A stretch of DNA of 58,458 nt from Burkholderiales bacterium (GTDB taxonomy: Bacteria; Pseudomonadota; Gammaproteobacteria; Burkholderiales; SG8-41): the NCBI GenBank assembly GCA_049433545.1, contig JBMTEY010000001.1:1-58458 (forward strand). The letters run 5' to 3'. The notes beneath the pieces were generated by a model, which worked only from the letters and a program-made list of their open reading frames with translations, made no database searches and was not told the origin of the DNA. This document shows positions 17,400 through 56,995 of the stretch, piece by piece (within the stretch, counting starts at the first letter, position 1; the number at the start of each line of letters is the position of its first letter). The position numbers and the translations under genes are program-made.

Positions 17400-17559
17400 G
17401 TCGTCGCCGCCATGCCGCGTTGACAGCGCACGACCGTTCTTACAGAATCGCCTGCGCTATCACGGGGGCGTTGGCAGACTCCCCGGTTCCAGACGCTCCG
17501 CGTCCAAGTGCTGCCTTCGTGTGCTGTTGGCGCCGATGCGCCAACGCGAAGGAGACCTG

Positions 17560-17904: not shown

Positions 17905-17908
17905 AGCC

Positions 17909-19252
17909 ATGACCCCTGATGCGCAGGACGCCACGCCGGCCGCGATCCCTTTCCGCGAAGCCTTCCGCTTCTGGCTGAAGCTCGGCTTCATCAGCTTCGG
18001 CGGGCCCGCCGGCCAGATCGCGATCATGCACGAGGAGCTGGTCGAACGCCGGCGCTGGATATCCGAGCGCCGCTTCCTGCATGCTCTGAACTACTGCATG
18101 GTGCTGCCCGGCCCCGAAGCGCAGCAGCTCGCCACCTACATCGGCTGGCTGATGCACCGGACCTGGGGCGGCATCGTCGCCGGCGGCCTGTTCGTGCTGC
18201 CCTCGCTGTTCATCCTGATCGCGCTGACGTGGATCTACATGGCCTGGGGCGACGTGCCGGCGATCGCCGGCATCCTCTACGGCATCAAGCCCGCAGTCAC
18301 CGCCATCGTCGTCGTCGCCGCGCTGCGCATCGGCATGCGCGCGCTGAAAAACGGCGTATTGTGGGGCATCGCCGCAGCGGCCTTCATCGCGCTGTTCGCA
18401 CTGAACCTGCCGTTCCCGCTGATCGTGATCGGCGCCGGTCTCATCGGCGCCGTCTGCGGCCGCGTGGCGCCGGCGCTGTTCGCCACCGGCGGCGGGCACG
18501 GCGCCGACGGCAAAAGTTACGGTGCGGCGGTGATCGACGACGACACGCCGACGCCGCAGCATGCGCTGTTCACCTGGAAACGTTTTGCCGCGGTGCTCGC
18601 TTTCGGACTGCTGCTGTGGACCGCGGCGATGGCACTGCTGATGGCAACGTACGGTTGGCAGGGCACGCTGACACAGATGGGCTGGTTCTTCACCAAGGCC
18701 GCGCTGCTGACCTTCGGCGGCGCCTATGCCGTGCTGCCCTATGTCTACCAGGCCGCAGTCGAGCACTACCAGTGGGTCACGCCGCTGCAGATGATCGACG
18801 GCCTCGCGCTCGGCGAAACCACGCCCGGACCGCTGATCATGGTGGTGGCCTTCGTCGGCTTCGTCGGCGGCTGGGCCACGCAGTTCCTCGGCGCCGACAG
18901 CCTGTTCCTTGCCGGCGCGCTGGCGGCGACCGTGGTCACCTGTTTCACCTTCCTGCCGAGCTTCATCTTCATCCTGCTCGGCGGCCCGTTGGTCGAAACC
19001 ACCCACGGTGACCTCAAGTTCACTGCGCCGCTGACCGGCATCACCGCAGCGGTGGTCGGCGTGATCCTCAACCTCGGGGTGTTTTTTGCGTACCACGTGC
19101 TGTGGCCAAAGGGCCTGCAGGGCGCGTTCGACTGGACGTCGGCGGTAATCGGCATCGCCGCCTTCCTCGCGCTGTGGCGATTCAAGGTCGGCATCATGCC
19201 GGTGATCGGCGCCTGCGCCGCGCTCGGCGCGGCGTGGACGCTGCTGGCCTGA
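17909..19252 (+). CDS. chrA: Chromate ion transporter (CHR family)
   Basis: FREAFRFWLKLGFISFGGPAGQIAIMHEELVERRRWISERRFLHALNYCMVLPGPEAQQLA, with a second CHR repeat (TFGGAYAVLPYV...GETTPGPL). ATG at 17909. Confidence 0.9.
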   Translation: MTPDAQDATPAAIPFREAFRFWLKLGFISFGGPAGQIAIMHEELVERRRWISERRFLHALNYCMVLPGPEAQQLATYIGWLMHRTWGGIVAGGLFVLPSLFILIALTWIYMAWGDVPAIAGILYGIKPAVTAIVVVAALRIGMRALKNGVLWGIAAAAFIALFALNLPFPLIVIGAGLIGAVCGRVAPALFATGGGHGADGKSYGAAVIDDDTPTPQHALFTWKRFAAVLAFGLLLWTAAMALLMATYGWQGTLTQMGWFFTKAALLTFGGAYAVLPYVYQAAVEHYQWVTPLQMIDGLALGETTPGPLIMVVAFVGFVGGWATQFLGADSLFLAGALAATVVTCFTFLPSFIFILLGGPLVETTHGDLKFTAPLTGITAAVVGVILNLGVFFAYHVLWPKGLQGAFDWTSAVIGIAAFLALWRFKVGIMPVIGACAALGAAWTLLA

Positions 19253-24564: not shown

Positions 24565-25461
24565 TCAGAACTTGCGCAGGACGATGAAATCGGCCAATTG
24601 CGCGAGCCGTGTGCCGCGCTCGCCGAACGATGCGATGGCCTGCAAGGCCTGTTCACGCAGGTCCGCCGCCAGTGCCTTGGCCTGGCTGACACCCATCGCG
24701 CTGACATAGGTCGGTTTTCCCTGCTCCGCATCCTTGCCCGCCGTCTTGCCGAGCGTTGCGGTCGGCGCCTCGGCGTCGAGCACATCGTCGACGACCTGGA
24801 ACGCCAGGCCGATCGCCTTGGCATAGGCATCGACCCGCGCCAGTCCGGCATCATCAAGACCGCTGCCGCAGCGCGCGCCGAGCACGGCCGCGGCGCGAAT
24901 CAGCGCACCGGTCTTGTGAATGTGCATGAATTCGAGTTCGGGCACGGTCAGCGTCTCGCCCACCGCGGCAAGATCGATGGCCTGGCCGCCCGCCATGCCG
25001 CGCGAACCTGCTGCTATCCCCAGCAGCTTGATCATGTCGAGCTGCGCGGTGGCGTCGTCGGCAAGGCGGTATTCGCCGAGCAGCTGGAACGCGAGGCTCT
25101 GCAGCGCATCACCCACCAGCAGCGCGGTGGCTTCGTCGAACTCGACGTGGCAGGTTGGTTTGCCCCGTCGCAGCACGTCATCGTCCATGCACGGCAGGTC
25201 GTCATGCACCAGCGAATAGGCATGGATGATTTCCACGGCCGCACCGGCGACCGTCACGCGTTCGGGATCCGCCTGCGACACTTCGCCGGCGGCATAAGCC
25301 AGCAGCGGGCGCACGCGTTTGCCGCCGCCGAGCACGGCATAGCGCATCGCCGCGTGCAGGCGTGACGGCGCGATCTCGGCCGACGGCAGCACGCGCTGCA
25401 GGAAGGCTTCGATGCGGTTCTGCCCGGCTGCAACCCAGGCCTGGAAATCAGGAGCCGTCAC
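24565..25461 (-). CDS. ispA: Farnesyl diphosphate synthase
   Basis: LVHDDLPCMDDDVLRRGKPT (first DDxxD) and FQVVDDVLD (second DDxxD). Confidence 0.92.
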   Translation of the reverse strand: MTAPDFQAWVAAGQNRIEAFLQRVLPSAEIAPSRLHAAMRYAVLGGGKRVRPLLAYAAGEVSQADPERVTVAGAAVEIIHAYSLVHDDLPCMDDDVLRRGKPTCHVEFDEATALLVGDALQSLAFQLLGEYRLADDATAQLDMIKLLGIAAGSRGMAGGQAIDLAAVGETLTVPELEFMHIHKTGALIRAAAVLGARCGSGLDDAGLARVDAYAKAIGLAFQVVDDVLDAEAPTATLGKTAGKDAEQGKPTYVSAMGVSQAKALAADLREQALQAIASFGERGTRLAQLADFIVLRKF

Positions 25462-25470
25462 AAAGTGGGG

Positions 25471-25707
25471 TTATTGTTCTGCGGCGCCGAAATTCTTCAG
25501 CACGCCGTTTTCGAGGATCTTCACCTGCTGCTGCGCGTCCTGCAGCTGGGTCTGGCAGACCTTGAGCAGTTCCGCGCCGCGTTTGTACGCCGCCAGCGAC
25601 TGTTCCAGCGGCATCTGGCCCTCTTCCATGGCTTCGACGATTTTCTCGAGTTCCGCGAGCGCCGATTCGAATGTCGGATTGTTCTGGTTCTTGGGCGATT
25701 TGGACAT
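25471..25707 (-). CDS. xseB: Exodeoxyribonuclease VII small subunit
   Basis: FESALAELEKIVEAMEEGQMPLEQSLAAYKRGAELLKVCQTQL. xseB-ispA-dxs synteny supports the call. Confidence 0.9.
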   Translation of the reverse strand: MSKSPKNQNNPTFESALAELEKIVEAMEEGQMPLEQSLAAYKRGAELLKVCQTQLQDAQQQVKILENGVLKNFGAAEQ

Positions 25708-25794
25708 GGCGGAATCGCCTCGTTGGATAAACCGAAAGACTAGCGCAATCAGCGAGTTGCGGTCAACGCGCCGAACCAGCGGGCACGCAGGCCC

Positions 25795-27024
25795 CTAGCC
25801 ACGCCCGGCGCTGTCCACCCGATCGATCACGGCCCGCGGAATCAGGCTCAGCTTCACCAGAGGCTTCAGTGATTCATCGCTGCTCTGCTTGCAGAACTCG
25901 CGGATCGCAAGGAATGCCCGTGCCGCCGCCGTGTCGTTCCAGAACCACTGGTCGATGGCCTTCGCCGCGAGATTGCCGGGCTGCGCCGCGGCAGCCTCGA
26001 AATAGTACGCCTTGACGTCGTCGCAGGCGCGCTTCACCGCGACCCCGGCGCTCATGCCGGCGACGACGGGCAGTACGGGCGCATCGTCGAGATAAGCCAG
26101 CACGTGATTCACTGCGTCGTCCACCGTCGCGCCGAACACGCCCACGGTGGTGCGGCCGCGCCGTTTGCGCGCCAGGTCATACCATGGAGCCAGTTGCGCA
26201 ACCTCGTCGCGTAGGGCCTGGGCCAGTCCGCCCGCGCCGGTTTTGGCCGCGGCAAAGCTCACCGGGCAGGCAAATCCGGAATCAGCGGATGCGGCATCCG
26301 GCGCATCCTCCGGAAAATCCTCCAGCACCGGGCCTGATTTTTTTTCGAACAGGGCCAGCAGGCTGCGCAGCACCCTGCGCTGGAAGTCCGCTTCATTCGG
26401 GGAACCGAAGGGACGGCCGAGCATGAACGGCACCCACAACGCGCGCGACGGTTTGATCGCCGCGGTCTGCTCACGGATCAGGCTGATCTGCGCCGTCGCC
26501 ACGCCTTCGCGCTCGAGGTAGTGTCCGAGTGCGCCCACGGCGCACGTGCAGTTGGGTCAGACCGGTGTCAGCAATACCGCATCCACCTTGTCCTTTTTCA
26601 GCAGCGCCGCGAGCTCGCGGGCCTTGGCCTCGAGGGCTCGGACCGGCGCCGCGCCCATGAAAGCATAGTGATAGTCCGACACCGATCCCACCACGCCTTC
26701 AGCCTGCAGTTCTCGCAGGCGGTCAAGCGGAAACACCACGTTGACGTCTTCCTGGAAGCCGCTGCGGTCGAAGTTCACCGAGCTGTGGCTCATGATCAGG
26801 TCGGCGTGCGGCGTATCGCCAGGGATCACGCGGTAATCCGCCGCGCCCGGCGGAAACGGCCGGTCTCCGCGCACGTGCACCCCGGAGGTGGTGATGATCG
26901 CCACCCGGCGCTCGCGCAGCGGCGGCCCGGGCACGAACGGCGTCGCGCCGAAATCCGGCAGGTCGCGGATCTTGTCGAGATGGTGCTGCCGCTCAAATTC
27001 CGGAAGATCGCTCAATCGCGCCAT
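25795..27024 (-). CDS. GrdB/PrdB-family reductase selenoprotein-B homologue. One 409-residue frame with Sec (UGA) at codon 156 (comp. 26557-26559)
   Basis: ORF-track pieces 26557-27024 and 25795-26538 are in the same frame and separated only by one TGA. Read-through gives ...DKVDAVLLTPV-U-PNCTCAVGALGHYLEREGVATAQISLIRE... The N-terminal part (VAIITTSGVHVRGDRPF...DYRVIPGD...VVFPLDRLREL) looks GrdB/PrdB-like. A hairpin follows the UGA. Confidence 0.8.
26529..26559 (-). promoter_or_regulatory. UGA plus candidate bacterial SECIS hairpin (GrdB/PrdB-like gene)
   Basis: Minus strand: UGA, then 11 nt (CCCAACUGCAC), then a perfect 7-bp stem GUGCGCC / GGCGCAC with a GUG loop (26529-26545). Confidence 0.7.
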
Positions 27025-27052
27025 CTGCTGTCCTTTCGGTTGCCATTAATTA

Positions 27053-27667
27053 TCAGCGCTGATGCTTGCCCAAGTTCCAGCCGCTTTTCGCCAGGTGTTT
27101 CTCGCCGACGTGGATAGGCTCCTCCTCCAGCGGCGTCGCCATGGTGTCGTTCCAGCGGTTGAGGAAACCGAAGTTTGCTATGACTGCCACGATTTCCACG
27201 ATCTGCCCTTCGCTCCAGTGCTTCTTGAGTTCGGCGAACATCTCGTCTGTAACCGCATTGGGCTGTGCCGCGCCGGCAATCGCAACTTCCAGTGCCGCAC
27301 GTTCCGCCTCGGAAAACAATGAACTGGTGCGAAATTCCCAGACAGCCTCGAGTTTTTCTGCTTCAACGCCCAGCCGGAGCGCCGCCCCGGCAGTGTGCGC
27401 CATTCAGTAATGGCAACCGTGTGCACGGCTCGCGACGTGGGCCAGCATGCGTTTGAACGCCACCGTCACTTCACCCTGCGGATCCCATACCGCAGCAGCG
27501 AGCTGGGCCATAGCCAGAACCAGTTTGGGTTTGCGTTGCATGATCAGCATGCTGTTCGGCACGAAACCCAGCGTTCGCGTGTAGGTCTTGAACGCCTCCT
27601 GCAGTTCCGGTACGGCATCCTGCGGCAGGGGCGCAAGCCGCGGATCGGGTCGGTCATTTTGTTTCAT
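27053..27667 (-). CDS. AhpD/carboxymuconolactone-decarboxylase-like peroxidase-related selenoprotein. 204 residues with Sec (UGA) at codon 88 (comp. 27404-27406)
   Basis: ORF-track pieces 27404-27739 and 27053-27403 are in frame across a single TGA. Read-through gives HVASRAHGCHY-U-MAHTAG, which aligns with EVASNAAGCRYCTAHNAE of the Cys paralogue at 28786-29382. The similarity runs on both sides of the TGA. ATG 27667 is preceded by GGAGGA. Confidence 0.85.
27373..27406 (-). promoter_or_regulatory. UGA plus candidate SECIS hairpin (AhpD-like gene)
   Basis: Minus strand: UGA, then 12 nt (AUGGCGCACACU), then stem GCCGGGG / CUCCGGC (7 bp, one G-U pair) with loop CGGCG (27373-27391). Confidence 0.6.
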
Positions 27668-27683
27668 CAATGTTTCCTCCTGG

Positions 27684-28289
27684 TCAAGATTGTTTCGTCG
27701 GGTTCGGGTATTCAAGGCAGCGCAGCAGATTGCAGGCAATGGAATTCAACGCATCGCGGTCCGGATTGACCTTGCCGAACAGTCGCAATCCCTGGATGCC
27801 CGCAACCAGGAAACGGGCCAGCGCACGGACGTCAGCGTCGTCGGAAATTTCCCCGCGCCCCTGCCCGCGTGCCAGCGCTTCGGCAAACGAAACTTCGATG
27901 CGCTCCAGGCTGCGCCGGACCTTGACTGCAGTGGCATGATCGCGTCGCGCCAGTTCGGCGGCGCAGTTGCCGATGAAGCACCCGCGCCGCCCCGGGCCGG
28001 CGACGATGCGGTCTATCAGTTCGCCGACGAATCCGGCAATCGCATCCTGCACCGGCAGCGGCCGTTGCAGCGCGGTGTTGATGCGGGCCAGTCCCTGTTT
28101 TTCATAACGCTCGAGAGAACGGTGCAGCAGCGCGCGCTTGCCGCCGAATGTCGCATACAGGCTGGAGCGGCTGAGTCCGGTGGCCGCACACAGGTCGTCG
28201 AGCGACGTCGCTTTGTAGCCCTTGGCCCAGAACGCCTGCATCGCCTGTTCCAGTGCAATGTCGGGCTCGAACTCACGATGCCTTGCCAT
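27684..28289 (-). CDS. TetR/AcrR-family transcriptional regulator
   Basis: ALEQAMQAFWAKGYKATSLDDLCAATGLSRSSLYATFGGKRAL is a TetR N-terminal HTH. 201 aa. Confidence 0.88.
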   Translation of the reverse strand: MARHREFEPDIALEQAMQAFWAKGYKATSLDDLCAATGLSRSSLYATFGGKRALLHRSLERYEKQGLARINTALQRPLPVQDAIAGFVGELIDRIVAGPGRRGCFIGNCAAELARRDHATAVKVRRSLERIEVSFAEALARGQGRGEISDDADVRALARFLVAGIQGLRLFGKVNPDRDALNSIACNLLRCLEYPNPTKQS

Positions 28290-28292
28290 TAT

Positions 28293-28748
28293 TTATTTGA
28301 CAGCGCCTGCCGCCAGTCCGTTGAGCGCCTTGCGCAGATTCTGCGTCACCGCGCCGCAATCCCCGCCCTGCTTGTGGCGTGCGGCGAGAAACTGCGGATC
28401 GTTGTATCCCAGCCACACCTGTCCGGAGGCATCCTGCCAAGCCAGCGCCTTCAGCAGCAGATCAATGCCGCTGGACTGCGCGCACAGCATCAAAGGCGTG
28501 CCGCCCTGGGGATTGCCGAACACCAGCAATTCCGTCGGGCGCAGTTCCTTGCCGATTTTTTTCGCGCCGGCGGCATGATCCACGCGCAGGAAGATATTGA
28601 GTCCCTTGCCCTTGGCGGCCGCCTCGAAGCGGTCGAGGGTGTCCTTGACGCTGTGCGGGCTCTTCAGGGCGATCAGGCCGTCGGCAGACCATGCGGAAAA
28701 CGGCAGCAGCGACAGCAGCAATACAGCGGCAATACGCATCCTGTTCAT
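28293..28748 (-). CDS. DUF302-domain protein with signal peptide
   Basis: MNRMRIAAVLLLSLLPFSAWSA is a signal peptide. PTELLVFGNPQGGTPLM...IDLLLKALAWQD...VWLGYNDPQFLAARH is the DUF302 pattern. Confidence 0.8.
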   Translation of the reverse strand: MNRMRIAAVLLLSLLPFSAWSADGLIALKSPHSVKDTLDRFEAAAKGKGLNIFLRVDHAAGAKKIGKELRPTELLVFGNPQGGTPLMLCAQSSGIDLLLKALAWQDASGQVWLGYNDPQFLAARHKQGGDCGAVTQNLRKALNGLAAGAVK

Positions 28749-28785
28749 GGATTTCTCCGGTTATGTGACAGCACCCGCCCGATGC

Positions 28786-29382
28786 CTACTTGGCATGCAC
28801 CCCGGGATTCCAACCCGAAGCGGCGAGATGCTTGCGGGCAAATTCCAGCGGATGTTCCTCGAGTTGGGTTGCCAGCGTGTCGTTCCAGCGGTTGAGCCAG
28901 CCGAAGAACGAAATCACCGACACGATTTCGATGATCGCATCTTCCGAGAAATGTTTCTTCAACTCGTCGAAATGGGCATCCGTGGCGGACGGCGGACAGC
29001 CGCCGGCGGCCAGTGCCAGGCTGAGGGCAGCGCGCTCGGCCGCGGTGAACAGAGGACTGGTCTGGAACTGCCACAACGCATGCAGCTTTTCCTCGGGAAC
29101 CTTGCCGCGCTCGACCACGTTTTCGGCGTTATGCGCAGTGCAGTAGCGACAACCGGCGGCATTGCTGGCGACTTCCGCCACCATCAGGCGCAGCGCCGTC
29201 GGCACCTCGCCCGCATCGGCCATCACCGCTTCGCGCAGGGTCTGGATGGCGCGAAACACTTTCGGCCGCCGCGCCAGCGTCAGCCAGCTGTTGGGCACGT
29301 AACCGCGCTGTTTTTTCGATTTTTCGAAATCCGCCGCGAACTCGGCGATGCGTTCTGCTGAAGCCGATGAGACTCTGGCCAT
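28786..29382 (-). CDS. AhpD/CMD-like peroxidase-related protein (Cys form, CxxC). Resembles the rSAM/ArsS-associated peroxidase-like family
   Basis: GYVPNSWLTLARRPKVF...VASNAAGCRYCTAHN...IIEIVSVISFFGWLNRWNDTLATQLEE. ATG 29382 is preceded by GGAGGA. It is a paralogue of 27053-27667 and divergent from the radical SAM gene. Confidence 0.82.
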   Translation of the reverse strand: MARVSSASAERIAEFAADFEKSKKQRGYVPNSWLTLARRPKVFRAIQTLREAVMADAGEVPTALRLMVAEVASNAAGCRYCTAHNAENVVERGKVPEEKLHALWQFQTSPLFTAAERAALSLALAAGGCPPSATDAHFDELKKHFSEDAIIEIVSVISFFGWLNRWNDTLATQLEEHPLEFARKHLAASGWNPGVHAK

Positions 29383-29458
29383 TCCATTTCCTCCGGTTAA
29401 TCGTGTTTGCCCGGCGCGGCAATTTGGTTTGACTGCGCGCCGCGGGCGGCTGACGGTT

Positions 29459-29500
29459 TTCAATGTCTTGCCGCATCGACCTATTATAGAATGATCGTTC
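29459..29500 (+). promoter_or_regulatory. Candidate sigma70 promoter and near-palindromic operator for the radical SAM operon
   Basis: TTCAAT (29459-29464), a 17-nt spacer, then TATTAT (29482-29487). This is immediately followed by GAATGATCGTTC (29489-29500), which matches its own reverse complement at 10 of 12 positions. Confidence 0.3.
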
Positions 29501-29653
29501 CAGAATACAACCGTTGCCGTTTCGGCTCATCCCGGTAAACAAGCAGGCAGCGTCACGGTACGGGGCGAATCGTGATATGAAGCCGGTTGTAAGGAACGCC
29601 CGGAAATTCCGACCGATGGTTTTTGCTGTAAACCGAGTTCCAGGAGCCGTTTG

Positions 29654-30619
29654 ATGCATGCCACCCTGCCCTTGATGGAAGCCAGTGATTTCCCGGCGAT
29701 CCGCCGCCGGCGCACCGAAACGCTGCAGGTTAACCTCGGTTACAAGTGCAACCAGAGCTGCCTGCACTGCCACGTCAACGCCGGTCCCACCCGCACTGAA
29801 CTGATGTCGCAGGAAACCATCCTCGACGTGATCGCCTATCTGCAGTCCGCCGGCATCGGCACACTGGATGTCACCGGAGGCGCGCCGGAGCTGAACCCCC
29901 ATTTCCGCTCTCTGGTCGAAACCGCGCGCAAGCTCGGCATACGCGTCATCGACCGCTGCAACCTGACCATCCTGTTTGAACCCGGACAGGAAACACTCGC
30001 GCAATTCCTTGCCGGTCAACAGGTTGAAATCACCGCCTCGCTGCCGTGTTATTCCGCAGACAATGTCGACCGCCAGCGCGGCAAGGGCGTATTCGACGCC
30101 AGCATCCGTGCGCTGCAACTGCTGAACGGACTCGGTTACGGCCGGCCCGGTTCCGCGCTGAAACTGAACCTGGTCTACAACCCGCAGGGTCCGGTGCTGC
30201 CCCCCGCCCAGCCGCAGCTCGAGCTCGATTACAAAAAACGACTGGCCGACGACCATGGCATCGTGTTCAATGAACTGTATGTCATCACCAACATGCCGAT
30301 CCAGCGCTTCGGCAGCACGCTGGTCTCCAGGGGACAGTTCAATCAGTACATGAGCCTGCTGAAAAACGCCTACCAGCCGGCCAACCTGGAATCGGTGATG
30401 TGCCGCACGCAACTCTCGGTCGACTGGCAGGGATTTGTCTACGACTGCGATTTCAACCAGATGCTCGATCTGCCGCTGGCGTGGAAACATCGGCCACGCA
30501 CCCACCTGCGCGAGTTGATAGGGGCCGATCCCGCGGGTAACCCCATCGTGGTCAGGGACCACTGTTACGGCTGCACCGCCGGCCAGGGTTCCAGCTGCGG
30601 CGGCGCACTGGTCGACTGA
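29654..30619 (+). CDS. arsS: Radical SAM / Cys-rich C-terminal domain protein (ArsS / TIGR04167-like; Cys rather than Sec in the C-terminal motif)
   Basis: LQVNLGYKCNQSCLHCHVNAG (CxxxCxxC radical SAM cluster). The C-terminal Cys-rich tail reads VVRDHCYGCTAGQGSSCGGALVD. Confidence 0.8.
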   Translation: MHATLPLMEASDFPAIRRRRTETLQVNLGYKCNQSCLHCHVNAGPTRTELMSQETILDVIAYLQSAGIGTLDVTGGAPELNPHFRSLVETARKLGIRVIDRCNLTILFEPGQETLAQFLAGQQVEITASLPCYSADNVDRQRGKGVFDASIRALQLLNGLGYGRPGSALKLNLVYNPQGPVLPPAQPQLELDYKKRLADDHGIVFNELYVITNMPIQRFGSTLVSRGQFNQYMSLLKNAYQPANLESVMCRTQLSVDWQGFVYDCDFNQMLDLPLAWKHRPRTHLRELIGADPAGNPIVVRDHCYGCTAGQGSSCGGALVD

Positions 30620-30640
30620 CAGCCATCCCCGTCCTGAGGC

Positions 30641-32032
30641 ATGACGATGATAGAACCGATTTTCGCGGTGTATTTCTGGGGTTTCCTGATCCTCTACGGC
30701 GGCGTGATGTACGCCATCTCGCCGCAGTCCCGCACCAGCGCCAGCTTCTTCACCGGCAGCGACGATGCCGGCCGCCCGGCGACCGAATGGGCCCTGATCT
30801 GCAGCATCTTCATCAGCTGGATATTCGCCAAATCGGTGACCAATGCAGCCAACCTCGGTGCCGCCTACGGCATCGTCGGCGGGCTGGCCTATGCCATGTA
30901 CTGGCTGTCGATACCGGTCGCCGGCATCGTCATCTACCGTTTGCGCACGCGCCATGGCGCAACCGGCCTGGTATCGTTCCTGATCGGCCGCTACGGGCGG
31001 CTGGCGGCGCTGGCGTTCACGCTCGCCATCCTGATCCGGCTCTACAACGAAGTGTGGAGCAACACCGCGGTCGTCGGCGCCTATTACGGAAAGGCCGGAG
31101 AGTGGACCTTCATCGCCTCGGCGCTGCTGTTTACTGCGGCCACTCTTTTCTACAGCATGAAGGGCGGACTGCGCAGTTCGATAGTCACCGACGTGATCCA
31201 GGCCGTGCTGTTCGTCATCGTGCTCGGCGTGGTGCTGTTCCTGGTCTTGCCCAAGCACGGACTGGGCACGCTGCTGTCGGTGGGTGATTTCCGGCTCAAC
31301 GCCGGCGTCGACCTGCTGCTGGTGGCGCTGCTGCAGGTGGTGTCATACCCGTTCCACGACCCGGTGCTCACCGACCGCGGCTTCATCACCCGCGAAAAAA
31401 CCATGCTGCGCGCGATGATCGTCGCCGGCGTGCTCGGCTTCATCTGCATTTTCGCCTTCAGCCTGGTCGGCGTGCACGCCAAACTCGAAGGTCTGCCGAC
31501 CGGCGACAACATGCCCGGCGCGGTGGCGCTGGCCTTCGGCACCCTGCCCTACCTGATGATGACCGTGGTGATGATCATGGCGGCGGGCTCGACGCTGGAC
31601 TCGACGTTTTCGTCGGTCGCCAAGTCCATCGGCCAGGAACTGCCGATGCTCGCCGGGCGGCTGCCGGGACCGCGTGCGATGGTCATCGGCATGTGGACCA
31701 TGCTGGCGTTCGCGATACTCGGCAACCTGCCGATGATCGCCGGCACCGACATCCTCAAGGCCACCACGGTCAGCGGCACCATGGTGATGGGCCTGGCGCC
31801 GGTGTTCCTGCTGGCGCCGCTGGTTAAACATTCGCCATGGAGTTTCCATCTCGCATTTTGGCCTGGCGTGATCCTCGGTGTCCTGCTCGCAGGCGGCGGC
31901 ATTCCGCAGGCCTGGGCCATCGGTGACGGCAAATATGCGCTGCTGCTCGGCACCAACCTCTACGGTCTGCTGATCTGCATTGCCGGCTTCCTCGCGCCGG
32001 TGATATGGCAGCGGCTGCGCGCGGCACGCTGA
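30641..32032 (+). CDS. Sodium:solute symporter (SSS) family transporter, substrate unknown
   Basis: 463-aa polytopic protein. SMKGGLRSSIVTDVIQAVLF resembles the SSS signature. It begins 21 nt after arsS. Confidence 0.7.
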   Translation: MTMIEPIFAVYFWGFLILYGGVMYAISPQSRTSASFFTGSDDAGRPATEWALICSIFISWIFAKSVTNAANLGAAYGIVGGLAYAMYWLSIPVAGIVIYRLRTRHGATGLVSFLIGRYGRLAALAFTLAILIRLYNEVWSNTAVVGAYYGKAGEWTFIASALLFTAATLFYSMKGGLRSSIVTDVIQAVLFVIVLGVVLFLVLPKHGLGTLLSVGDFRLNAGVDLLLVALLQVVSYPFHDPVLTDRGFITREKTMLRAMIVAGVLGFICIFAFSLVGVHAKLEGLPTGDNMPGAVALAFGTLPYLMMTVVMIMAAGSTLDSTFSSVAKSIGQELPMLAGRLPGPRAMVIGMWTMLAFAILGNLPMIAGTDILKATTVSGTMVMGLAPVFLLAPLVKHSPWSFHLAFWPGVILGVLLAGGGIPQAWAIGDGKYALLLGTNLYGLLICIAGFLAPVIWQRLRAAR

Positions 32033-32036
32033 CCGC

Positions 32037-33029
32037 ATGCAACCCGGACGCAGCTGCCCCCTGCACTACCGCTATGCGCCGCAATCGCTGCGCCGGCCGC
32101 CGGAAATCCTGGCCGACACGCTGTATGTGATCGGCGGACTCTACGGCAACCTTCCCGCGTTGCAGGCCGTATCTGCGCTGGCCGCGGCCGAGCCGGAGCC
32201 GGTGGCGCTGGTGTTCAACGGCGACTTCAACTGGTTCAACATCGACGGCGGCGGATTTTCGGCGATCAATGAAACCGTGCTGCAACACCACGCGCTGCGC
32301 GGCAACGTTGAAACCGAACTCGCCGGGGATGACGATGAGGCGGGCTGCGGCTGCGCCTATCCGGACAGCGTCGGCGACGAGGAAGTCGCCCGCTCCAATG
32401 CCATGCTCGCGCAGTTGCGCGCCACCGCGCGCAGGTTTCCGGACCTGCGCTCCCAGCTCGCCGCGCTGCCGATGAACCGGGTCGCCGAAGTCGGCGGCCT
32501 GCGCATTGCCATCGTACACGGCGACTGTGAATCGCTGGCCGGCTGGTCGTACGACGAATCGGCTTTCCGCGGCACCACCGGCAGCACGCGCCTCGCCGCA
32601 CATTTCGCCGCCAGCGGCGCGCGCATCATCGCCAGCAGCCACACCTGCCTGCCGGTGGCGCTGCGCCAGCGCAGGCCACAGGGCGACTGCGCGCTGTTCA
32701 ACAACGGCGCGGCCGGCATGCCCAATTTCGCCGGCACCCAATTCGGGGTGATCACGCGGATAGCAACCACCCCCGCGCGCCCATCGGCCGCGCTCTACGG
32801 CACAGTCATCCATGGCGTGCACATTGATGCGCTGGCCGTGCACTACGATTCCGCACAATGGCAACAGGACTTCGCAGCCAACTGGCCGGCCGGCAGCGCC
32901 GGATACCTGTCCTATCACCGGCGCATCACCCAGGGCCCGCGCCACGGCATCAACAAGGCCCTGCACAAGGGCATCCACCTCAATCCTGAACTGCTGCGCG
33001 GACTGCGCGCCAGCGAGGCGATTCAATGA
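32037..33029 (+). CDS. Hypothetical protein with degenerate metallophosphoesterase-like motifs
   Basis: LYVIGGLYGN, VFNGDFNWFN, LRGNVE, IVHGD and SSHTC loosely follow calcineurin-like phosphoesterase motif order, but the first motif lacks the canonical Asp/His. It begins 4 nt after the transporter gene. Confidence 0.5.
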   Translation: MQPGRSCPLHYRYAPQSLRRPPEILADTLYVIGGLYGNLPALQAVSALAAAEPEPVALVFNGDFNWFNIDGGGFSAINETVLQHHALRGNVETELAGDDDEAGCGCAYPDSVGDEEVARSNAMLAQLRATARRFPDLRSQLAALPMNRVAEVGGLRIAIVHGDCESLAGWSYDESAFRGTTGSTRLAAHFAASGARIIASSHTCLPVALRQRRPQGDCALFNNGAAGMPNFAGTQFGVITRIATTPARPSAALYGTVIHGVHIDALAVHYDSAQWQQDFAANWPAGSAGYLSYHRRITQGPRHGINKALHKGIHLNPELLRGLRASEAIQ

Positions 33030-35158
33030 AAAAAAGCAAACTGCTGGTATTCGCACTGATCGCCGCGGGCATCGTCGCGTTTTTTGCATTCGACCTGAAG
33101 CAGTACTTCACCCTGGATTATTTCCAGGCACAGCGCGCGGCGATCGATGCCGAAGTCCAGTCCCGGCCGTTGCGCTCGGCCCTGCTGTTTTTTGCCGCCT
33201 ATGTCGCGGTCACCGGGCTGTCGCTGCCGGGTGCCGCCATCATGACGCTGGTGGCGGGCGCGGTGTTCGGCCTGCTGTGGGGCACGATCATCGTGTCATT
33301 CGCCTCGACTTTGGGTGCCACGCTGGCCTTCCTCGCCTCTAGATTCCTGCTGCGCGACTGGGTGCAGGACAAATTCGGCGACAAGCTGCGGCCGATCAAC
33401 GACGGCATCGCGCGCGAAGGCGGTTTTTACCTGTTTGCGCTGCGCCTGGTGCCGGCCTTTCCGTTTTTCGTGATCAACCTGGTGATGGGCCTGACGTCCA
33501 TCCGCACCTGGACCTACTACTGGGTCAGCCAGCTCGGCATGTTTGCCGGCACCGTGGTATACGTCTACGCCGGCACCCAGCTCGGGGAATTCCGCATTTC
33601 GGCGGGACTGATCGGCGCCTTCGTGCTGCTGGGCCTGTTCCCGCTCGCCGCGAAAAAAACCCTGGACGCGCTGAAGGCGCGCAAGGTCTACGCCGGCTGG
33701 AACCGGCCCGCGCGTTTCGACCGTAACCTCGTCGTCATCGGCGCCGGCTCGGCAGGGCTGGTCTCCGCCTACATCGCTGCGGCGGTGAAAGCGAAAGTGA
33801 CGCTGGTCGAGAAACACAGGATGGGCGGCGACTGCCTGAACACCGGCTGCGTGCCGTCCAAGGCGCTGATCAAGTCGGCGAAACTGCTGGCGACCATGAA
33901 ACACGCCAGCAACTACGGCCTGAAGGACACGCAGGTGGATTTCGACTTTGCCGAGGTCATGGAACGCGTGCAACGCGTGGTCCGTAAAGTCGAGCCCCAT
34001 GATTCCGTCGAACGCTACACCGCGCTGGGCGTCGAATGCATCAGCGGCGAGGCAAAGATCACTTCGCCGTGGAGCGTCGAAGTGAAAACCCCCGCGGGCG
34101 CGCAGACGCTGACCACGCGCGGCATTGTCATTGCCGCCGGCGCGCGCCCCTTCGTGCCGCCGATACCCGGGATCAACGATGTCGGCTGCCTGACCTCTGA
34201 CACGGTGTGGGAACTGCGCACACTGCCGAAACGCCTGGTGGTGCTCGGCGGCGGCCCGATCGGCTGCGAACTGACGCAGTGTTTCGCCCGTCTAGGCTCA
34301 CAGGTCATCCAGGTCGAGATGCTTCCGCGGATCATGATCCGCGAGGATCCGGAAATTTCCGACATGGTGCTGCAGAAATTCCGTGCCGAAGGCGTCAGCG
34401 TGCTGGTGAACCACAAGGCGCAGCGCTTCGCGGTCGAAAACGGTGAAAAAGTCCTGTACTGCGAAAACGAAGGCCGCGAAGTGCGCATCACCTTCGACGC
34501 ACTGCTGTGCGCGGTCGGCCGCGTCGCCAACACCTCAGGCTACGGCCTCGAGGAACTCGGTATCCCGGTGACGAAATCGCGCACCGTCGAAGTCAACGAA
34601 TTCCTGCAGACCAGATACCCGAACATCCTCGTTTGCGGCGATGTCGCCGGACCGTACCAGTTCACCCACACCGCGGCGCACACCGCCTGGTATGCCGCGG
34701 TCAACGGCCTGTTCGGCGGGTTCAAAAAATTCCGTGTTGATTACTCGGTGATCCCCTGGGCCACGTTTACCGACCCCGAAGTCGCGCGCGTCGGCCTCAA
34801 TGAAACCGAGGCCAGGGAAAAAAACATTTCCTGCGAAGTCACCACCTACGGCATCGACGACCTCGACCGCGCCATCGCTGACGGTACTGCGCACGGCATG
34901 GTCAAGGTATTGACCGTGCCCGGCAAGGACAAGATCCTGGGCGCCACCATCGCAGGCGAGCATGCCGGCGACCTGATCACCGAATTCGTCACCGCAATGA
35001 AACACGGCATCGGACTCAACAAGATCCTCGGTACCATCCACATCTACCCGACGCTCGCCGAAGCCAACAAGTACGTGGCAGGGAACTGGAAGCGCGCACA
35101 CGCGCCCCAAGCATTGCTGGAATGGGTGGAGAAGTTTCATGCGTGGCGGCGAGGATAA
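33026..35158 (+). CDS. Fusion protein: TVP38/TMEM64 (DedA-like) membrane domain plus FAD-dependent pyridine nucleotide-disulfide oxidoreductase (mercuric/glutathione reductase-like)
   Basis: The N-terminal ~220 aa are multi-TM (VSFASTLGATLAFLASRFLLRDWV...LRLVPAFPFFVINLVMG). These are followed by LVVIGAGSAGLVSAY, the redox-active GGDCLNTGCVPSK, a second Rossmann motif VVLGGGPIGCE, and a dimerisation domain. ATGA overlap with the upstream gene. Confidence 0.85.
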   Translation: MKKSKLLVFALIAAGIVAFFAFDLKQYFTLDYFQAQRAAIDAEVQSRPLRSALLFFAAYVAVTGLSLPGAAIMTLVAGAVFGLLWGTIIVSFASTLGATLAFLASRFLLRDWVQDKFGDKLRPINDGIAREGGFYLFALRLVPAFPFFVINLVMGLTSIRTWTYYWVSQLGMFAGTVVYVYAGTQLGEFRISAGLIGAFVLLGLFPLAAKKTLDALKARKVYAGWNRPARFDRNLVVIGAGSAGLVSAYIAAAVKAKVTLVEKHRMGGDCLNTGCVPSKALIKSAKLLATMKHASNYGLKDTQVDFDFAEVMERVQRVVRKVEPHDSVERYTALGVECISGEAKITSPWSVEVKTPAGAQTLTTRGIVIAAGARPFVPPIPGINDVGCLTSDTVWELRTLPKRLVVLGGGPIGCELTQCFARLGSQVIQVEMLPRIMIREDPEISDMVLQKFRAEGVSVLVNHKAQRFAVENGEKVLYCENEGREVRITFDALLCAVGRVANTSGYGLEELGIPVTKSRTVEVNEFLQTRYPNILVCGDVAGPYQFTHTAAHTAWYAAVNGLFGGFKKFRVDYSVIPWATFTDPEVARVGLNETEAREKNISCEVTTYGIDDLDRAIADGTAHGMVKVLTVPGKDKILGATIAGEHAGDLITEFVTAMKHGIGLNKILGTIHIYPTLAEANKYVAGNWKRAHAPQALLEWVEKFHAWRRG

Positions 35159-35205
35159 TACATAACCCGTTGTTTTTATTGATATTTATTAAAAAATTGC
35201 TGTTC

Positions 35206-36018
35206 ATGCTGTTGCTGGCCGTCGCCCCTTTCCCGGCATCCGCGCAAGCTTTCGATCACGATCACAAAGCCTGGGACGCGCTGCTGAAAAAACATGTCGT
35301 GCTGATCGACGGCGGCAAGGCATCGCAGGTGCGCTATGCCGGCTTTGCGCAGGAGCCCGCCGCGCTGAAAACTTACCTTGGCACCTTGTCAAAAGTCAGT
35401 GCGCAGGAATTCTCCGGCTGGAGCAAACCGCAGCAGATGGCCTTCCTTATCAACGCCTACAACGCGTACACCGTCGAGAAAATCCTCACTCGCCATCCCG
35501 ACATCCGCTCGATCTGGGATTTCGGGAAAATTTTCGGCAATCCGTTCAAGGACAAATTCTTCAAACTGCTCGGCCGCGACTTTTCGCTGGACATGATCGA
35601 GCATGAAACCCTGCGCAAGCCCGGCGCCTACAACGAGCCACGCGTGCACTTCGCGGTGAACTGCGCCTCGGTGGGCTGCCCGATGCTGCGTGAGGAAGCC
35701 TACGTCCCCACGCGTCTCGATGCGCAGCTCGAGGAACAGACGCGGCGTTTCCTCTCGGATCGCAGCCGCAACCGCTACAACCCGCAGAGCAACACGCTGG
35801 AAGTTTCCGAAATCTTCAAATGGTTCAGCGAGGACTGGACCAGCGGCTATCGCGGCTTTGAAGGAAAAAATCCGGCGATCCAGTCGCGCGAGCAATTCTT
35901 CGCGGCGTACGCAACGCTGCTTGCCGACAGCCCCACCCAGCAGCAGGCCATCGCCGACCGCAAGGCCGGCATCTCGCATCTGGATTATGATTGGGCATTG
36001 AACGTCGCAAAGAAATAA
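35206..36018 (+). CDS. DUF547-domain protein, probably exported
   Basis: AFLINAYNAYTVEKIL...VHFAVNCASVGCPML...EVSEIFKWF is the DUF547 pattern. The N-terminus MLLLAVAPFPASAQA is signal-like. The true start may be an upstream TTG near 35178. Confidence 0.78.
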   Translation: MLLLAVAPFPASAQAFDHDHKAWDALLKKHVVLIDGGKASQVRYAGFAQEPAALKTYLGTLSKVSAQEFSGWSKPQQMAFLINAYNAYTVEKILTRHPDIRSIWDFGKIFGNPFKDKFFKLLGRDFSLDMIEHETLRKPGAYNEPRVHFAVNCASVGCPMLREEAYVPTRLDAQLEEQTRRFLSDRSRNRYNPQSNTLEVSEIFKWFSEDWTSGYRGFEGKNPAIQSREQFFAAYATLLADSPTQQQAIADRKAGISHLDYDWALNVAKK

Positions 36019-36036
36019 TCCCTCTCCGGCTCTCCC

Positions 36037-53396: not shown

Positions 53397-53425
53397 TTGT
53401 TTAAAATCAAATAGTTGCAATAAAT

Positions 53426-53454: not shown

Positions 53455-53480
53455 GCCGCGCGGCAGGCATGCGCTACACT
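53453..53480 (+). promoter_or_regulatory. Candidate promoter for selA-selB
   Basis: TTGCCG (53453-53458), a 16-nt spacer, then TACACT (53475-53480). Confidence 0.35.
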
Positions 53481-53576
53481 GCGTCTTCGTTATTCCAAGC
53501 CGCAATTTTCCGCAGCAAACCCCGCACTGATCTGCAGCCCGATGACTCCGATGCCACGCCGCATGGCCACGCCGCC

Positions 53577-54980
53577 ATGGTGAATCCCGCTGAAGCCGCG
53601 CGTCGCGCGTTGCCTTCGGTCGATCGCCTGCTCGGCAGTAGCGCGGTGGCGGACCTCATCACGACCTACGGCCGTACCCGCGTAACCGCAGTGCTGCGCG
53701 ATGCGCTCGACGCCGAGCGCGCAAGGCTGGCGCACCCTGATGCCGCCGCCTGGAACGAAACCACTTTCCTGAAAACCTATGCCGCACTGCTGCGAGATTC
53801 CGTCGCCCCCTCGCTGAAACCGGTGTTCAACCTCACCGGCACCGTGCTGCACACCAACCTCGGCCGCGCGGTGATGCCGCAGAGCGCCGCCGCCGCGGTG
53901 ATGGCGGCGATGACCAACCCGGTGAACCTCGAATTCGATCTCGCTACCGGTACCCGCGGCGAACGCGACAGCCATGTCGAACGCCGCCTGATCCAGCTCA
54001 CCGGCGGCGAGAAGGCGGTGGCCGTCAACAACAACGCCGCGGCGGTCTATCTCGCTCTGAACACGCTGGCGCTGAAACGCGAAGTGCTGGTGTCGCGCGG
54101 CGAACTGATCGAAATCGGCGGCGCCTTCCGCATCCCCGACATCATGTCACGCGCCGGAGTGAAACTGGTCGAAGTCGGCACCACCAACCGCACCCACCTC
54201 AAGGACTATGCCGAGGCGATCACGCCGCGCACCGCCGCGATCATGAAGGTGCACACCAGCAATTACGTGGTGCAGGGATTCACCGCGGCAGTGCCCGAGC
54301 CGGAACTGGCGAAACTCGCGCATGAACACGATCTGCCGTTCATCGTCGACCTCGGCAGCGGCACGCTGATCGACCTCGAGCACTACGGCCTACCGCACGA
54401 GCCGACGCCGCGCGAAGCACTCGCCAACGGCGCAGACGTCGTCACCTTCAGCGGCGACAAGCTGCTCGGCGGCCCGCAGGCCGGCCTGCTGACCGGTCGC
54501 CGCGACCTGATGGCGCGCATCGCCAAAAACCCGATGAAACGCGCGCTACGCCTCGACAAGCTGACGCTGGCTGCGCTCGACGCCGTGCTGCGGCTCTACC
54601 TGCACCCCGAACGCCTGCATGAGGAACTGCCTGCACTGCGCTGGCTGACACGCACCCCGGAAGACATGGCGGCACAGGCCGCGCGCCTGCAGCCGGCACT
54701 GGCAGCGGCACTGGGGGAACAGTGGAAAGTCGAGACCGTTGACTGCAAATCGCAGATCGGCAGCGGCGCGCTGCCGGTCGACTCGCTGCCGGGCAAGGCC
54801 CTCGCCGTCAGCCCCGCCGTGAAAAAAGGCAACCTCAACAAGCTCGCCGCCGCCTTTCGCGACCTGCCGCTGCCGGTGATCGGCCACATCCGCGACGGCG
54901 CGCTGGTGTTCGACCTGCGCTGCCTGGACCGCGAGGACGAATTTGCGGCGCAACTGCAACAGCTGAAGATCCCGAAATGA
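53577..54980 (+). CDS. selA: L-seryl-tRNA(Sec) selenium transferase
   Basis: LPSVDRLLGS...NLTGTVLHTNLGRA...NNNAAAVYLAL...GGAFRIPDIM...FSGDKLLGGPQAG (PLP Lys). I prefer the start at 53577. The ORF-track ATG at 53469 would lie upstream of the candidate -10 box. Confidence 0.92.
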   Translation: MVNPAEAARRALPSVDRLLGSSAVADLITTYGRTRVTAVLRDALDAERARLAHPDAAAWNETTFLKTYAALLRDSVAPSLKPVFNLTGTVLHTNLGRAVMPQSAAAAVMAAMTNPVNLEFDLATGTRGERDSHVERRLIQLTGGEKAVAVNNNAAAVYLALNTLALKREVLVSRGELIEIGGAFRIPDIMSRAGVKLVEVGTTNRTHLKDYAEAITPRTAAIMKVHTSNYVVQGFTAAVPEPELAKLAHEHDLPFIVDLGSGTLIDLEHYGLPHEPTPREALANGADVVTFSGDKLLGGPQAGLLTGRRDLMARIAKNPMKRALRLDKLTLAALDAVLRLYLHPERLHEELPALRWLTRTPEDMAAQAARLQPALAAALGEQWKVETVDCKSQIGSGALPVDSLPGKALAVSPAVKKGNLNKLAAAFRDLPLPVIGHIRDGALVFDLRCLDREDEFAAQLQQLKIPK

Positions 54981-56995
54981 TCATCGCCACCGCGGGTCAC
55001 ATCGACCACGGCAAGACGCTGCTGGTCAAAACCCTGACCGGCACCGACACCGACCGCCTGCCCGAGGAAAAGGCGCGCGGCATCTCGATCGACCTCGGCT
55101 TCGCCTACCTGCCGCTGGACGGCGGCGGCCTGATCGGTTTTGTCGACGTCCCGGGCCACGAACGCTTCATCCGCAACATGCTCGCCGGCGTGTCGGGCAT
55201 CGATTATGCGCTGCTGGTGGTCGCCGCGGACGACGGCGTAATGCCGCAGACCGTCGAACACCTGCAGATCCTCGACCTGCTGCATATCCGCCGTGGAGCG
55301 GCAGTCATTACAAAAATCGACCGTGTCGATGCCGCGCGCGTCGAGCAGGTCAGCGCCCAGGTGCGTGCACTGCTGGCGCCGACGCGGCTCGCCGATGTCG
55401 CGATCCACCCGGTGTCTGCGGTCAGCGGCGCCGGCATGGCCGAACTGAAGACAGTGCTGCTGCGCGAAGCTGCGGCGCAGAACCAGCGCAGCGCCGAAGG
55501 ACAGCACCTGCGTTACGCCATCGACCGGGCGTTCAGCATCGCCGGCAGCGGCACCGTAGTCACCGGCACGGTGTTCAATGGCAACGTAAGAACCGGCGAC
55601 AAGCTGGTGATTTCACCCGCGGGACGCGAAGTGCGCGTGCGCAGCATCCAGATCCACGGCAAAGCCGCGGACCAGGCGCGCGCCGGCGAACGCTGCGCGC
55701 TGAACCTGACCGGCGCCGACGTCGAATCGGTGCGCCGGGGCGACTGGGTAATGGCTGCGGCGATCCACCGACCGACGCAGAAACTCGACGTGCGGCTGAG
55801 CGTGCTGCAGGCCGAGGCACATCCGCTGAAGCACTGGACGCCGGTGCATCTGCATCTCGCCACCGCCGACGTCACCGCGCGCGTGTCGCTGCGCCGCGGT
55901 GAGGCGCTGGCTCCGGGCAAGGACATCATCGCGCAGCTGGCGCTCGACGAACCGGTATCCGCGCTGCACGGCGACCGTTTCATCCTGCGTGACCAGTCTT
56001 CGACGCGCACCGTCGGCGGCGGCACCATCATTGATCCCGCCCCGCCCGCGGCACGGCGCAGCAAGGCGCGCGACGCCGTGCTCGCCGCGCTGGAGTCCGC
56101 GGACGCCACCAACGCGCTCACCGCGCTGAGCGCCGGCGGCAAACCGGTAGACCTCGCGCACTTTGAAGCGGTCTTCAACCTGCTGCCCGAAGTCGCCGCC
56201 GCGGAATACGCGCGCGCCGACCTCCTGCCGCTGGGCAAGGACCGCCGCATCGCCATCACCGGCACGCGCCTGGCCGCCGTCCACGAAGCCGCCGTCAAAC
56301 AGCTGCGCGCCTTCCACCAGGCGCAGCCACAGGCGACGGGCTTGGAAATCGAAACCCTGCGCGCGACGCTGGCACCTGAACTCGACGGCGACGCCTTCGG
56401 CCATGCGCTGCGCCTGCTCGCCGACAAACGCACGATCGAAATCCACAGTTCGCTCGCGCGTATTCCCGGCCACGACAGCACCGCCAACAGCGCCGATACG
56501 CGGATGTGGGAAACCGTGCAGCCGGTGCTGCTGGCGGCCGGCTTCAATCCGCCGCCGCTGAAGGAACTGGCGCCGCTGCTGAAAATCAAGGATGCGCTGC
56601 TCAAGGATTTTCTGTATCGCCAGACGAAGGCCGGCAATCTCTACCGCGTTGGCGCCGAAAGGTTTTACCTCAAAAACACCATGGCCGTGCTGGCCGCGAC
56701 AGCGCAAGCAGTCTGCGCAAAACAGCCGAGCGGCCAGTTCACCGCGGCACAGTACCGCGACGCCACCGGCATAGGCCGCACGCTGGCGATCGAGATTCTC
56801 GAAACGCTGGACTCACTGACCGTCACCCAGCGCATCGGTGACGCGCGCAAGATGCGCAAGGACTTCGCGCCCATACTCGGCGCCGCCGATCCGGCGCCAC
56901 CGCCACCGCCGGGTGCTGCAGCCAAGGCACAGTCGCAGAAGCCGGCGGCGCACAAACCGCAGCAACGCCCCCCTTTCCGCAACAAACGTTATTGA
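54977..56995 (+). CDS. selB: Selenocysteine-specific translation elongation factor
   Basis: [44 protein letters not shown]...DVPGHERFI...TKID, plus winged-helix C-terminal domains. ATGA overlap with selA. It carries an unusual Pro/Lys/Gln-rich tail of about 40 aa. Confidence 0.93.

Follow-up and report, generated by a model that had tools for sequence, protein, structure and literature searches.

A seemingly stop-broken AhpD-like gene of a Burkholderiales bacterium most likely codes for a single intact redox enzyme with an active-site selenocysteine

Gene organization of the locus

The window analysed here is a stretch of 58,458 nucleotides from a Burkholderiales bacterium, in which a Cys-containing AhpD/CMD paralogue, a DUF302 gene, a TetR-family regulator gene, an AhpD-like gene and a PrdB-like gene, the last two each with an in-frame TGA, follow one another on the same strand with gaps of 37, 3, 16 and 28 nt, and are in turn followed by xseB-ispA-dxs (Table 1). 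An ArsS radical-SAM cluster lies divergent from this unit, and the DUF302 gene is syntenic in related loci. The five genes probably form one transcription unit. A scan of positions 25400-29800 returned no promoter-like site, and terminator-like sites at background level, so that the operon structure rests on the short intergenic distances and on synteny.

Table 1. Coordinates of the genes and sequence features discussed in the text
Feature	Position	Strand	Remarks
PrdB/GrdB-like gene (predicted selenoprotein), 409 codons	25795..27024	(-)	28 nt downstream of the AhpD-like gene
Hairpin of the PrdB-like gene	26542-26526	(-)	GUGCGCC-GUG-GGCGCAC, 11 nt past the TGA
In-frame TGA of the PrdB-like gene	26556-26554	(-)	LLTPV-U-PNCTC
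AhpD/CMD-like CDS (predicted selenoprotein)	27053..27667	(-)	204 codons; Pfam CMD PF02627; 204-aa Cys homologues
Downstream ORF piece of the AhpD-like gene	27053..27403	(-)	
Upstream ORF piece of the AhpD-like gene	27404..27739	(-)	
Stop codon of the AhpD-like gene	27055-27053	(-)	TGA, then TAA
SECIS-like hairpin	27373..27391	(-)	5' arm 27391-27384, loop GGC 27383-27381, 3' arm 27380-27373
ATG directly after the in-frame TGA	27403-27401	(-)	
In-frame UGA, predicted selenocysteine, residue 88	27404..27406	(-)	motif C85-H-Y-U88-M-A-H91
Likely start codon of the AhpD-like gene	27667-27665	(-)	ATG
Shine-Dalgarno-like GGAGG	27676..27680	(-)	8 nt 5' of ATG 27667; from sequence
TetR-family regulator	27684..28289	(-)	Pfam TetR_N, TetR_C_13; stop 16 nt before the start of the AhpD-like gene
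DUF302 protein, signal-peptide-like N-terminus	28293..28748	(-)	Pfam PF03625; between Cys paralogue and TetR gene
Cys paralogue, 198 aa	28786..29382	(-)	GCRYC, same AhpD/CMD subfamily; 48% identity, E 2e-56
selA, L-seryl-tRNA(Sec) selenium transferase	53469..54980	(+)	TIGR00474, 580.6 bits vs cut-off 267.9
selB, SECIS-binding selenocysteine-specific elongation factor	54977..56995	(+)	TIGR00475, 435.5 bits vs 242.25

The two ORF pieces of the AhpD-like gene are contiguous in a single frame, with one TGA as their sole separator, and re-translation of that frame reads VASRAHGCHY-*-MAHTAG across the junction; both points had been made in the initial annotation, in which the junction was given as VASRAHGCHY-U-MAHTAG. 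It had also placed the UGA opposite the second Cys in the paralogue's CxxC motif and had cited one block of similarity on each flank of the TGA. The pairwise alignment (48% identity over 196 residues) agrees, the TGA standing opposite the second Cys of GCRYC, and both blocks are found in it.

The PrdB-like gene carries its in-frame TGA at the known Sec position of PrdB/GrdB, and this TGA and the hairpin that follows it are kept in 23 of 24 distinct orthologues. The close database homologues are almost all C-terminal fragments of ~245 residues, which would mean that they are split Sec forms. The protein also has an extra C-terminal half of ~180 residues without family match, and a sequence search of the PDB with the PrdB-like protein gave no match.

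Conservation of the TGA and exchange of Sec and Cys

The position of the TGA is that of a residue on which the family does not vary, since all 120 of the best database homologues have the second Cys of G-C-x-Y-C-M-A-H there, within a near-invariant G-C-x-Y-C-M-A-H-T-A-G. These Cys homologues are full length (204 aa) and 66-83% identical to the AhpD-like protein. A degenerate 32-nt DNA pattern for G-C-x-Y-TGA-M-A-H-T-A-G, with ~48 bits of information, was searched in a collection of one genome per species (596 Gb), and 64 loci with TGA at the second Cys were found, against roughly 0.004-0.05 chance matches expected by an arithmetic estimate. Nearly all of them come from Betaproteobacteria/Burkholderiales MAGs; the source organisms of the Sec forms are uncultured MAGs, and the samples that yielded this clade are largely freshwater, groundwater and soil. 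In all complete copies the frame is open on either side of the TGA and both translated halves are clearly orthologous, and second copies with MAHNAG or MAHSAG, present in some genomes, have the TGA too. Counting distinct orthologous sequences, at least 86 retain the TGA. Moreover, relative to the window copy the median dN/dS of the 78 codons preceding the TGA is 0.16 and that of the 112 codons following it 0.13, and such values of about 0.15 point to purifying selection on both halves. A metagenome scan that allowed TGA, TGC or TGT gave TGA in 31 of 118 cases among the matches listed, a TGA-to-Cys ratio that is indicative only.

In a quick distance tree (neighbour-joining, 278 sequences), a single clade of 96 takes in 87 of the 89 Sec forms together with nine Cys forms, parsimony on the tree gives about five Sec/Cys changes, and the window's Cys paralogue is an outgroup lineage. 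From this tree the Sec forms appear nearly monophyletic, and Sec-to-Cys switching appears to have been repeated within the Burkholderiales clade, which fits the dynamic Sec/Cys exchange that has been published (PMC1794560).

The Cys paralogue of the window has orthologues with 79-90% identity in seven other genomes (L012, L025, L037, L042, L047, L048 and L052), all of which have TGC/TGT and lack the hairpin, and the motif context of this lineage differs (SNAAGCRYCTAHNAE). It is best read as an old, separately conserved lineage rather than as a selenium-sparing twin, and for this reason the idea of a Se-replete and a Se-limited isoform, one of two raised in the initial annotation for the Sec/Cys pair, the other being a different substrate for each, looks less likely. 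Two distinct functions would fit the pair better than interchangeable isoforms, because the two proteins share just 48% identity, the paralogue has conserved orthologues of its own and the motif context is different.

The hairpin downstream of the UGA

The hairpin that the initial annotation had described 12 nt past the UGA is present, and it can be drawn with 7 bp and a 5-nt loop or with 8 bp and a 3-nt loop, the latter reading GCCGGGGC / GGC / GCUCCGGC. In an alignment of 86 different TGA-form sequences, 94.8% of the cells for the eight proposed pairs are paired, as compared with just 30-61% when the register is slid by 1-3 columns, and third-codon positions within the stem hardly vary. Two of the eight pairs show compensatory changes (C-G to U-A in four sequences, C-G to G-C in two), and G-U to A-U changes in the stem are seen in 11 sequences; the strong conservation of the hairpin leaves the covariation thin, with seven compensatory cells at two of eight pairs.

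The hairpin is tested most sharply against Cys forms. Of 82 TGA forms, 80 have 7-8 of 8 pairs in register, as against 6 of 8 or less, mostly 3-4, in all 81 Cys-codon forms with the same peptide motif. The two TGA exceptions (L057 and L116), which the tree places apart from the main Sec clade, form another hairpin at this position, one with a bulge; a Cys form within the Sec clade (P0003) retains a 6-of-8 relic of the hairpin, and 3 of 8 hairpin positions pair in the window's Cys paralogue.

Compared with shuffles, the hairpin region has no significant fold energy in a sequence of 63% GC (z = -0.4), and neither has the PrdB-like hairpin region, so that the thermodynamic argument was dropped; the validation of the putative hairpin lies instead in the comparison between sequences. 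An Rfam scan of the window returned only a chrB-b motif; Rfam is not known to hold a bacterial SECIS model, so that this result says nothing on the hairpin. Bacterial SECIS elements have been described as stem-loops immediately 3' of the UGA whose small apical loop contains G (PMC1088965). The hairpin agrees with this description in its 12-nt spacing and in its loop G-G/U-C, which begins with G; it is also conserved, with some covariation, and specific to the TGA forms.

Family, fold and closest known relatives

With Cys in place of the stop, the protein scores 40.8 bits against Pfam CMD PF02627 (cut-off 23). Its best NCBIfam match, also with U read as C, is TIGR01926 'peroxidase-related enzyme' (74.7 bits, cut-off 81.8), and two NCBIfam '(seleno)protein' models match below their cut-offs, namely NF053654 (YciW-related; 65.4 vs 310) and NF041238 (AhpD_rel_CFYUT; 28.5 vs 175). 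Since the TIGR01926 score is below the curated cut-off, the protein is placed in the broader AhpD-like/COG2128-type group and is not a strict member of TIGR01926.

The structure modelled was that of a Cys orthologue with 83% identity (P0001). Its AlphaFold model (pLDDT 92.4) is all-helical, with the CxxC at the N-terminus of helix 86-98, and the best structural matches are the Bmp8 entries 6OHI and 6OHJ (TM 0.80-0.88, rmsd 1.8 A), the second of which is the C82A mutant, altered in the first Cys of Bmp8. AhpD and 'peroxidase-related' structures rank after Bmp8, at 17-24% identity. The Mycobacterium tuberculosis-type AhpD, 6K40, 2PRR, 6E8L and 7XW1 have in common with the AhpD-like protein the all-helical CMD fold and a CxxC at a helix N-terminus; the solved AhpD/CMD proteins are just 17-24% identical to it, and the M. 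tuberculosis-type AhpD reduces the peroxiredoxin AhpC, for which no ahpC/peroxiredoxin gene was found among the genes within ~5 kb on either side of the AhpD-like gene. Further, the AhpD-like protein has a His at +3 from the second Cys/Sec, whereas the M. tuberculosis AhpD has it at +4.

Bmp8, a thiol-dependent debrominase of the pentabromopseudilin pathway, is the closest solved and biochemically characterised relative. Sequence comparison gives E 3e-33 and 38% identity over 174 residues, the next solved relative having E 9e-9, and the signatures GF.PN, GC.YC..H and FGFLNRWN are shared. Bmp8 has Cys at both motif positions, and Sec88 of the predicted protein aligns with the second of them, C85. 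Bmp8 debrominates tetrabromopyrrole, and a reduction of the C-Br bond through oxidation of the Cys pair to a disulfide is proposed (PMC5577590). The gene context of Bmp8 is a bromopyrrole cluster (bmp1-10, with halogenase, ACP-thioesterase and P450), which is absent around the AhpD-like gene, and an identity of 38% to Bmp8 would not by itself fix the substrate.

The statement in the initial annotation that AhpD-like proteins are a recognised bacterial selenoprotein family is borne out by the literature (PMC1088965, PMC2398784, PMC13188914). AhpD-like CxxU selenoproteins (COG2128/TIGR01926) were reported by Zhang and Gladyshev from the Sargasso Sea in 2005 and from GOS in 2008; in ocean metagenomes they count among the most abundant families of selenoproteins, and a 2026 review has the family under TIGR01926. 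The present protein resembles them in belonging to the same Pfam/COG superfamily, in having Sec in place of the second Cys, in the small-loop SECIS directly after the UGA and in being outnumbered by Cys homologues. Unlike the earlier members, it belongs to a distinct Burkholderiales/Betaproteobacteria clade and is often paired with a PrdB-like selenoprotein. In a 2006 census one selenoprotein family was counted in Betaproteobacteria, with FdhA as the sole selenoprotein of the Sec-decoding members (PMC1794560).

Decoding of the in-frame UGA

An absence of Sec machinery had been named at the outset as a finding that would speak against selenocysteine; selA and selB are both encoded in the window, 26 kb from the AhpD-like gene. 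The gene selC was not found in the 58-kb window, either with ARAGORN or in a permissive Rfam scan downstream of selB, and selD was not found among the 36 window ORFs scanned. A reassignment of TGA in the genetic code was considered and rejected, given that TGA is the commonest stop in the window and ends 31 of the 52 predicted ORFs, the AhpD-like gene's own stop included; two of these 31 ends are the proposed Sec codons of the AhpD-like and PrdB-like genes.

The conserved TGA, the TGA-specific hairpin, the presence of selA and selB and the literature all favour what was initially put forward, a hidden AhpD/CMD selenoprotein with a CxxU motif and a SECIS hairpin. It is very probable that UGA88 is decoded in a SelB-dependent manner by way of the hairpin, giving a redox protein with the motif Cys85-x-x-Sec88 that would pass through a selenenylsulfide in its cycle. 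The stretch 27667..27053 (-) would be one gene for a 204-residue, all-helical redox protein of AhpD/CMD fold, in which the hairpin, 12 nt after UGA88, would recruit SelB-GTP-Sec-tRNA(Sec), and UGA88 would then be decoded as selenocysteine, not as a stop. As deduced from homology with Bmp8, a thiol-dependent reductase, and with AhpD-type proteins, the attacking nucleophile would be the selenol at the second motif position, and Cys85 would resolve the intermediate to give an intramolecular selenenylsulfide.

Stop-codon read-through stimulated by downstream structure occurs in bacteria and viruses, and on such general grounds the UGA could be read by a standard tRNA (a Trp or Cys near-cognate) without any selenocysteine, the hairpin just slowing the ribosome or termination. 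This is very unlikely, since the codon stands at the invariant redox Cys, for which Sec is a known substitute in the family, and the 12-nt spacing and small G-containing loop match bacterial SECIS elements (PMC1088965 for both); moreover, selA and selB lie in the same window, and the PrdB-like gene next door has the same arrangement at the known PrdB/GrdB Sec position.

It is still more doubtful that the gene is truly split, with a stop at the UGA and a restart at the AUG that directly follows it, to give polypeptides of 87 and 116 residues acting separately or in a complex. TGA-ATG is a classic stop-start arrangement, and gene callers and public records do give two separate pieces; the public records hold a 116-residue 'carboxymuconolactone decarboxylase family protein' and, for the gene next to it, a 155-residue 'PrdB' fragment. 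However, the Met also follows the Cys in the Cys forms (C-M-A-H in 118 of 120 homologues), so that it did not arise as a start codon after a split, and no Shine-Dalgarno-like sequence was seen in the 20 nt upstream; an independent start at this ATG, which the initial annotation had regarded as adverse to its proposal, is disfavoured by both observations. Furthermore, the break would cut an active-site motif at the helix N-terminus of a single compact domain, a split would give no reason for a hairpin confined to the TGA forms, and none of more than 86 sequences has TAA or TAG instead of TGA as the break codon.

Finally, the chance of a pseudogene or of an assembly or sequencing error is negligible, for although a single base change from TGC or TGT to TGA would suffice, the same TGA recurs in 64 species-level genomes, each assembled independently, four nearly identical contigs from separate samples share it, both halves appear to be under strong purifying selection and the Sec forms are nearly monophyletic in the tree.

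The PrdB-like neighbour and candidate functions

Among Sec-form AhpD-like genes whose flanks are long enough, 26 of 90 have the TetR gene immediately upstream in the same orientation, and 22 of 83 have the PrdB-like gene immediately downstream. The order is reversed at three loci (L196-L198), where the PrdB-like gene precedes the AhpD-like Sec gene; near other PrdB-like genes the Cys paralogue is the only AhpD-like gene, or there is none at all, and the remaining Sec forms, as well as the Cys forms examined, are found in unrelated gene contexts. Judged from these neighbourhoods, the pairing is recurrent but not obligatory. An obligate partnership was rejected on the same counts, the PrdB-like gene being downstream in only 22 of 83 Sec forms and some PrdB-like genes being without an AhpD-like Sec neighbour. 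The section on selenoprotein operons in the 2026 review does not mention the pairing.

The arrangement resembles that of glycine reductase, with its GrdA (CxxU) and GrdB (UxxCxxC), in that two selenoprotein genes are adjacent, one with CxxU and the other a GrdB/PrdB homologue with U-x-x-C-x-C. Unlike GrdA, the CxxU protein of the locus has the AhpD fold, and no gene for a grdE/prdA-type pyruvoyl subunit was seen among the neighbours examined. The AhpD-like protein probably works with the PrdB-like selenoprotein, or re-reduces it, and candidate roles would be this re-reduction, a Bmp8-like reductive cleavage of small molecules or peroxide-related chemistry. It is conceivable, if rather unlikely, that the two proteins form a TetR-controlled two-selenoprotein reductase in aerobic Burkholderiales, a non-clostridial analogue of GrdA/GrdB, with the AhpD-like protein as selenol/thiol partner in the place of selenoprotein A; the adjacency of the genes in both orders in different genomes speaks for such a system, and the fact that the pairing is not obligatory in either direction speaks against it. 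Alternatively, because of its kinship with Bmp8, the AhpD-like protein might itself carry out a Sec-dependent reductive cleavage, such as a dehalogenation, by analogy with the iodothyronine deiodinases.

Conclusions

AhpD-like CxxU selenoproteins have been known since 2005, and the Burkholderiales gene adds to that family; what goes beyond the descriptions consulted is the size of the Burkholderiales clade with its near-invariant hairpin, the recurrent PrdB-like pairing, the closeness to Bmp8 and the truncated form in which public records still carry the gene. It seems broken by a stop but most likely codes for a single redox enzyme, intact and with selenocysteine in its active site. For annotation, it is a well-controlled case of a selenoprotein split in two by current pipelines, and the conserved motif and hairpin could become a model for repairing at least 64 species-level genomes. 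For the biology of the family, the Sec-using AhpD-like clade is extended into Burkholderiales, two selenoprotein families that have been known as abundant in metagenomes since 2005, AhpD-like and PrdB-like, are predicted to be linked in one regulated operon, and thiol/selenol reductive chemistry of the Bmp8 type offers a concrete, testable candidate function.

Genes adjoining the AhpD-like Sec gene and their public annotation

The AhpD-like Sec gene is adjoined by a PrdB/GrdB-like gene whose in-frame TGA (26556-26554) lies in the context LLTPV-U-PNCTC and is followed by the hairpin GUGCGCC-GUG-GGCGCAC at 26542-26526, both TGA and hairpin being conserved in 23 of 24 orthologues. The C-terminal half of this protein (about 180 residues) gave no match to families or to the PDB. 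In the databases the genes appear in pieces: the records for 27053-27403 and 26557-27024 of the window have been entered as separate proteins, the cluster mate MGA0032603.1 is a 116-aa "carboxymuconolactone decarboxylase family protein", and the PrdB-like pieces are 155-aa fragments named "D-proline reductase PrdB / selenoprotein B".

In all contexts examined, the PrdB-like gene adjoins the ArsS cluster. Here, this divergently transcribed cluster encodes the radical SAM "(seleno)protein" ArsS, carrying a C-terminal Cys (SSCGG) in the window, as well as a sodium:solute symporter, a 330-aa protein without assigned function, a 710-aa fusion of a VTT domain with an FAD disulfide reductase, a DUF547 protein and the transferases TIGR04283 and TIGR04282 ("arsenosugar biosynthesis").

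Coordinates and strands of the features described in the window
Feature	Position	Strand	Remarks
chrB-b RNA motif	17463-17514	+	53.3 bits (gathering score 36.5)
Chromate efflux transporter gene	17702-19252	+	chrB-b motif just upstream
PrdB/GrdB-like gene	25795-27024	-	Split by in-frame TGA
Divergently transcribed cluster	29651-37351	+	ArsS, symporter, further genes
3-Mercaptopyruvate sulfurtransferase-like rhodanese	39492-40343	+	Adjoins flavoprotein
Flavoprotein, 447 aa	40794-42137	-	
508-aa protein	51894-53420	-	Divergent from selA
selA and selB	53469-56995	+	Scores well over curated cut-offs

Selenocysteine machinery and other features of the window

The selA and selB genes overlap by 4 nt; tRNA-Sec was not found downstream of selB, nor selD among the 36 ORFs scanned in the window. 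The 447-aa flavoprotein matches weakly both the "type III sulfide:quinone reductase, selenoprotein subtype" and a SelD-associated N-terminal domain, each far under the cut-off. As regards the 508-aa protein, its glutathione S-transferase match is confined to the C-terminal 200 residues, the N-terminal 300 being without assignment.

Second copies, outlying Sec forms and Cys forms

In several genomes (those of loci L003, L008, L011, L038, L040, L056, L138 and L179) the AhpD-like gene is present twice in its Sec form, the two copies lying in tandem in L011. The second copies show a MAHNAG or MAHSAG motif and retain the hairpin.

Two TGA forms, L057:2013-2066(-) and L116:1195-1248(-), are placed outside the main Sec clade of the neighbour-joining tree, and their hairpin, at an unchanged distance from the TGA, differs from that of the other forms and contains a bulge (GCGGGCG-GUU-CGCUCCGC); they may represent an independent Cys-to-Sec event. 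Moreover, two Cys forms, P0003 (L072:809-1423) and P0001 (L069:2199-2813), are positioned within the Sec clade. P0001 is 83% identical to the AhpD-like protein of the window, and its gene adjoins xseB without a PrdB-like gene. P0003 retains the AALRLG peptide and 6 of the 8 hairpin pairs, a remnant which looks like a decaying SECIS following a Sec-to-Cys reversion.
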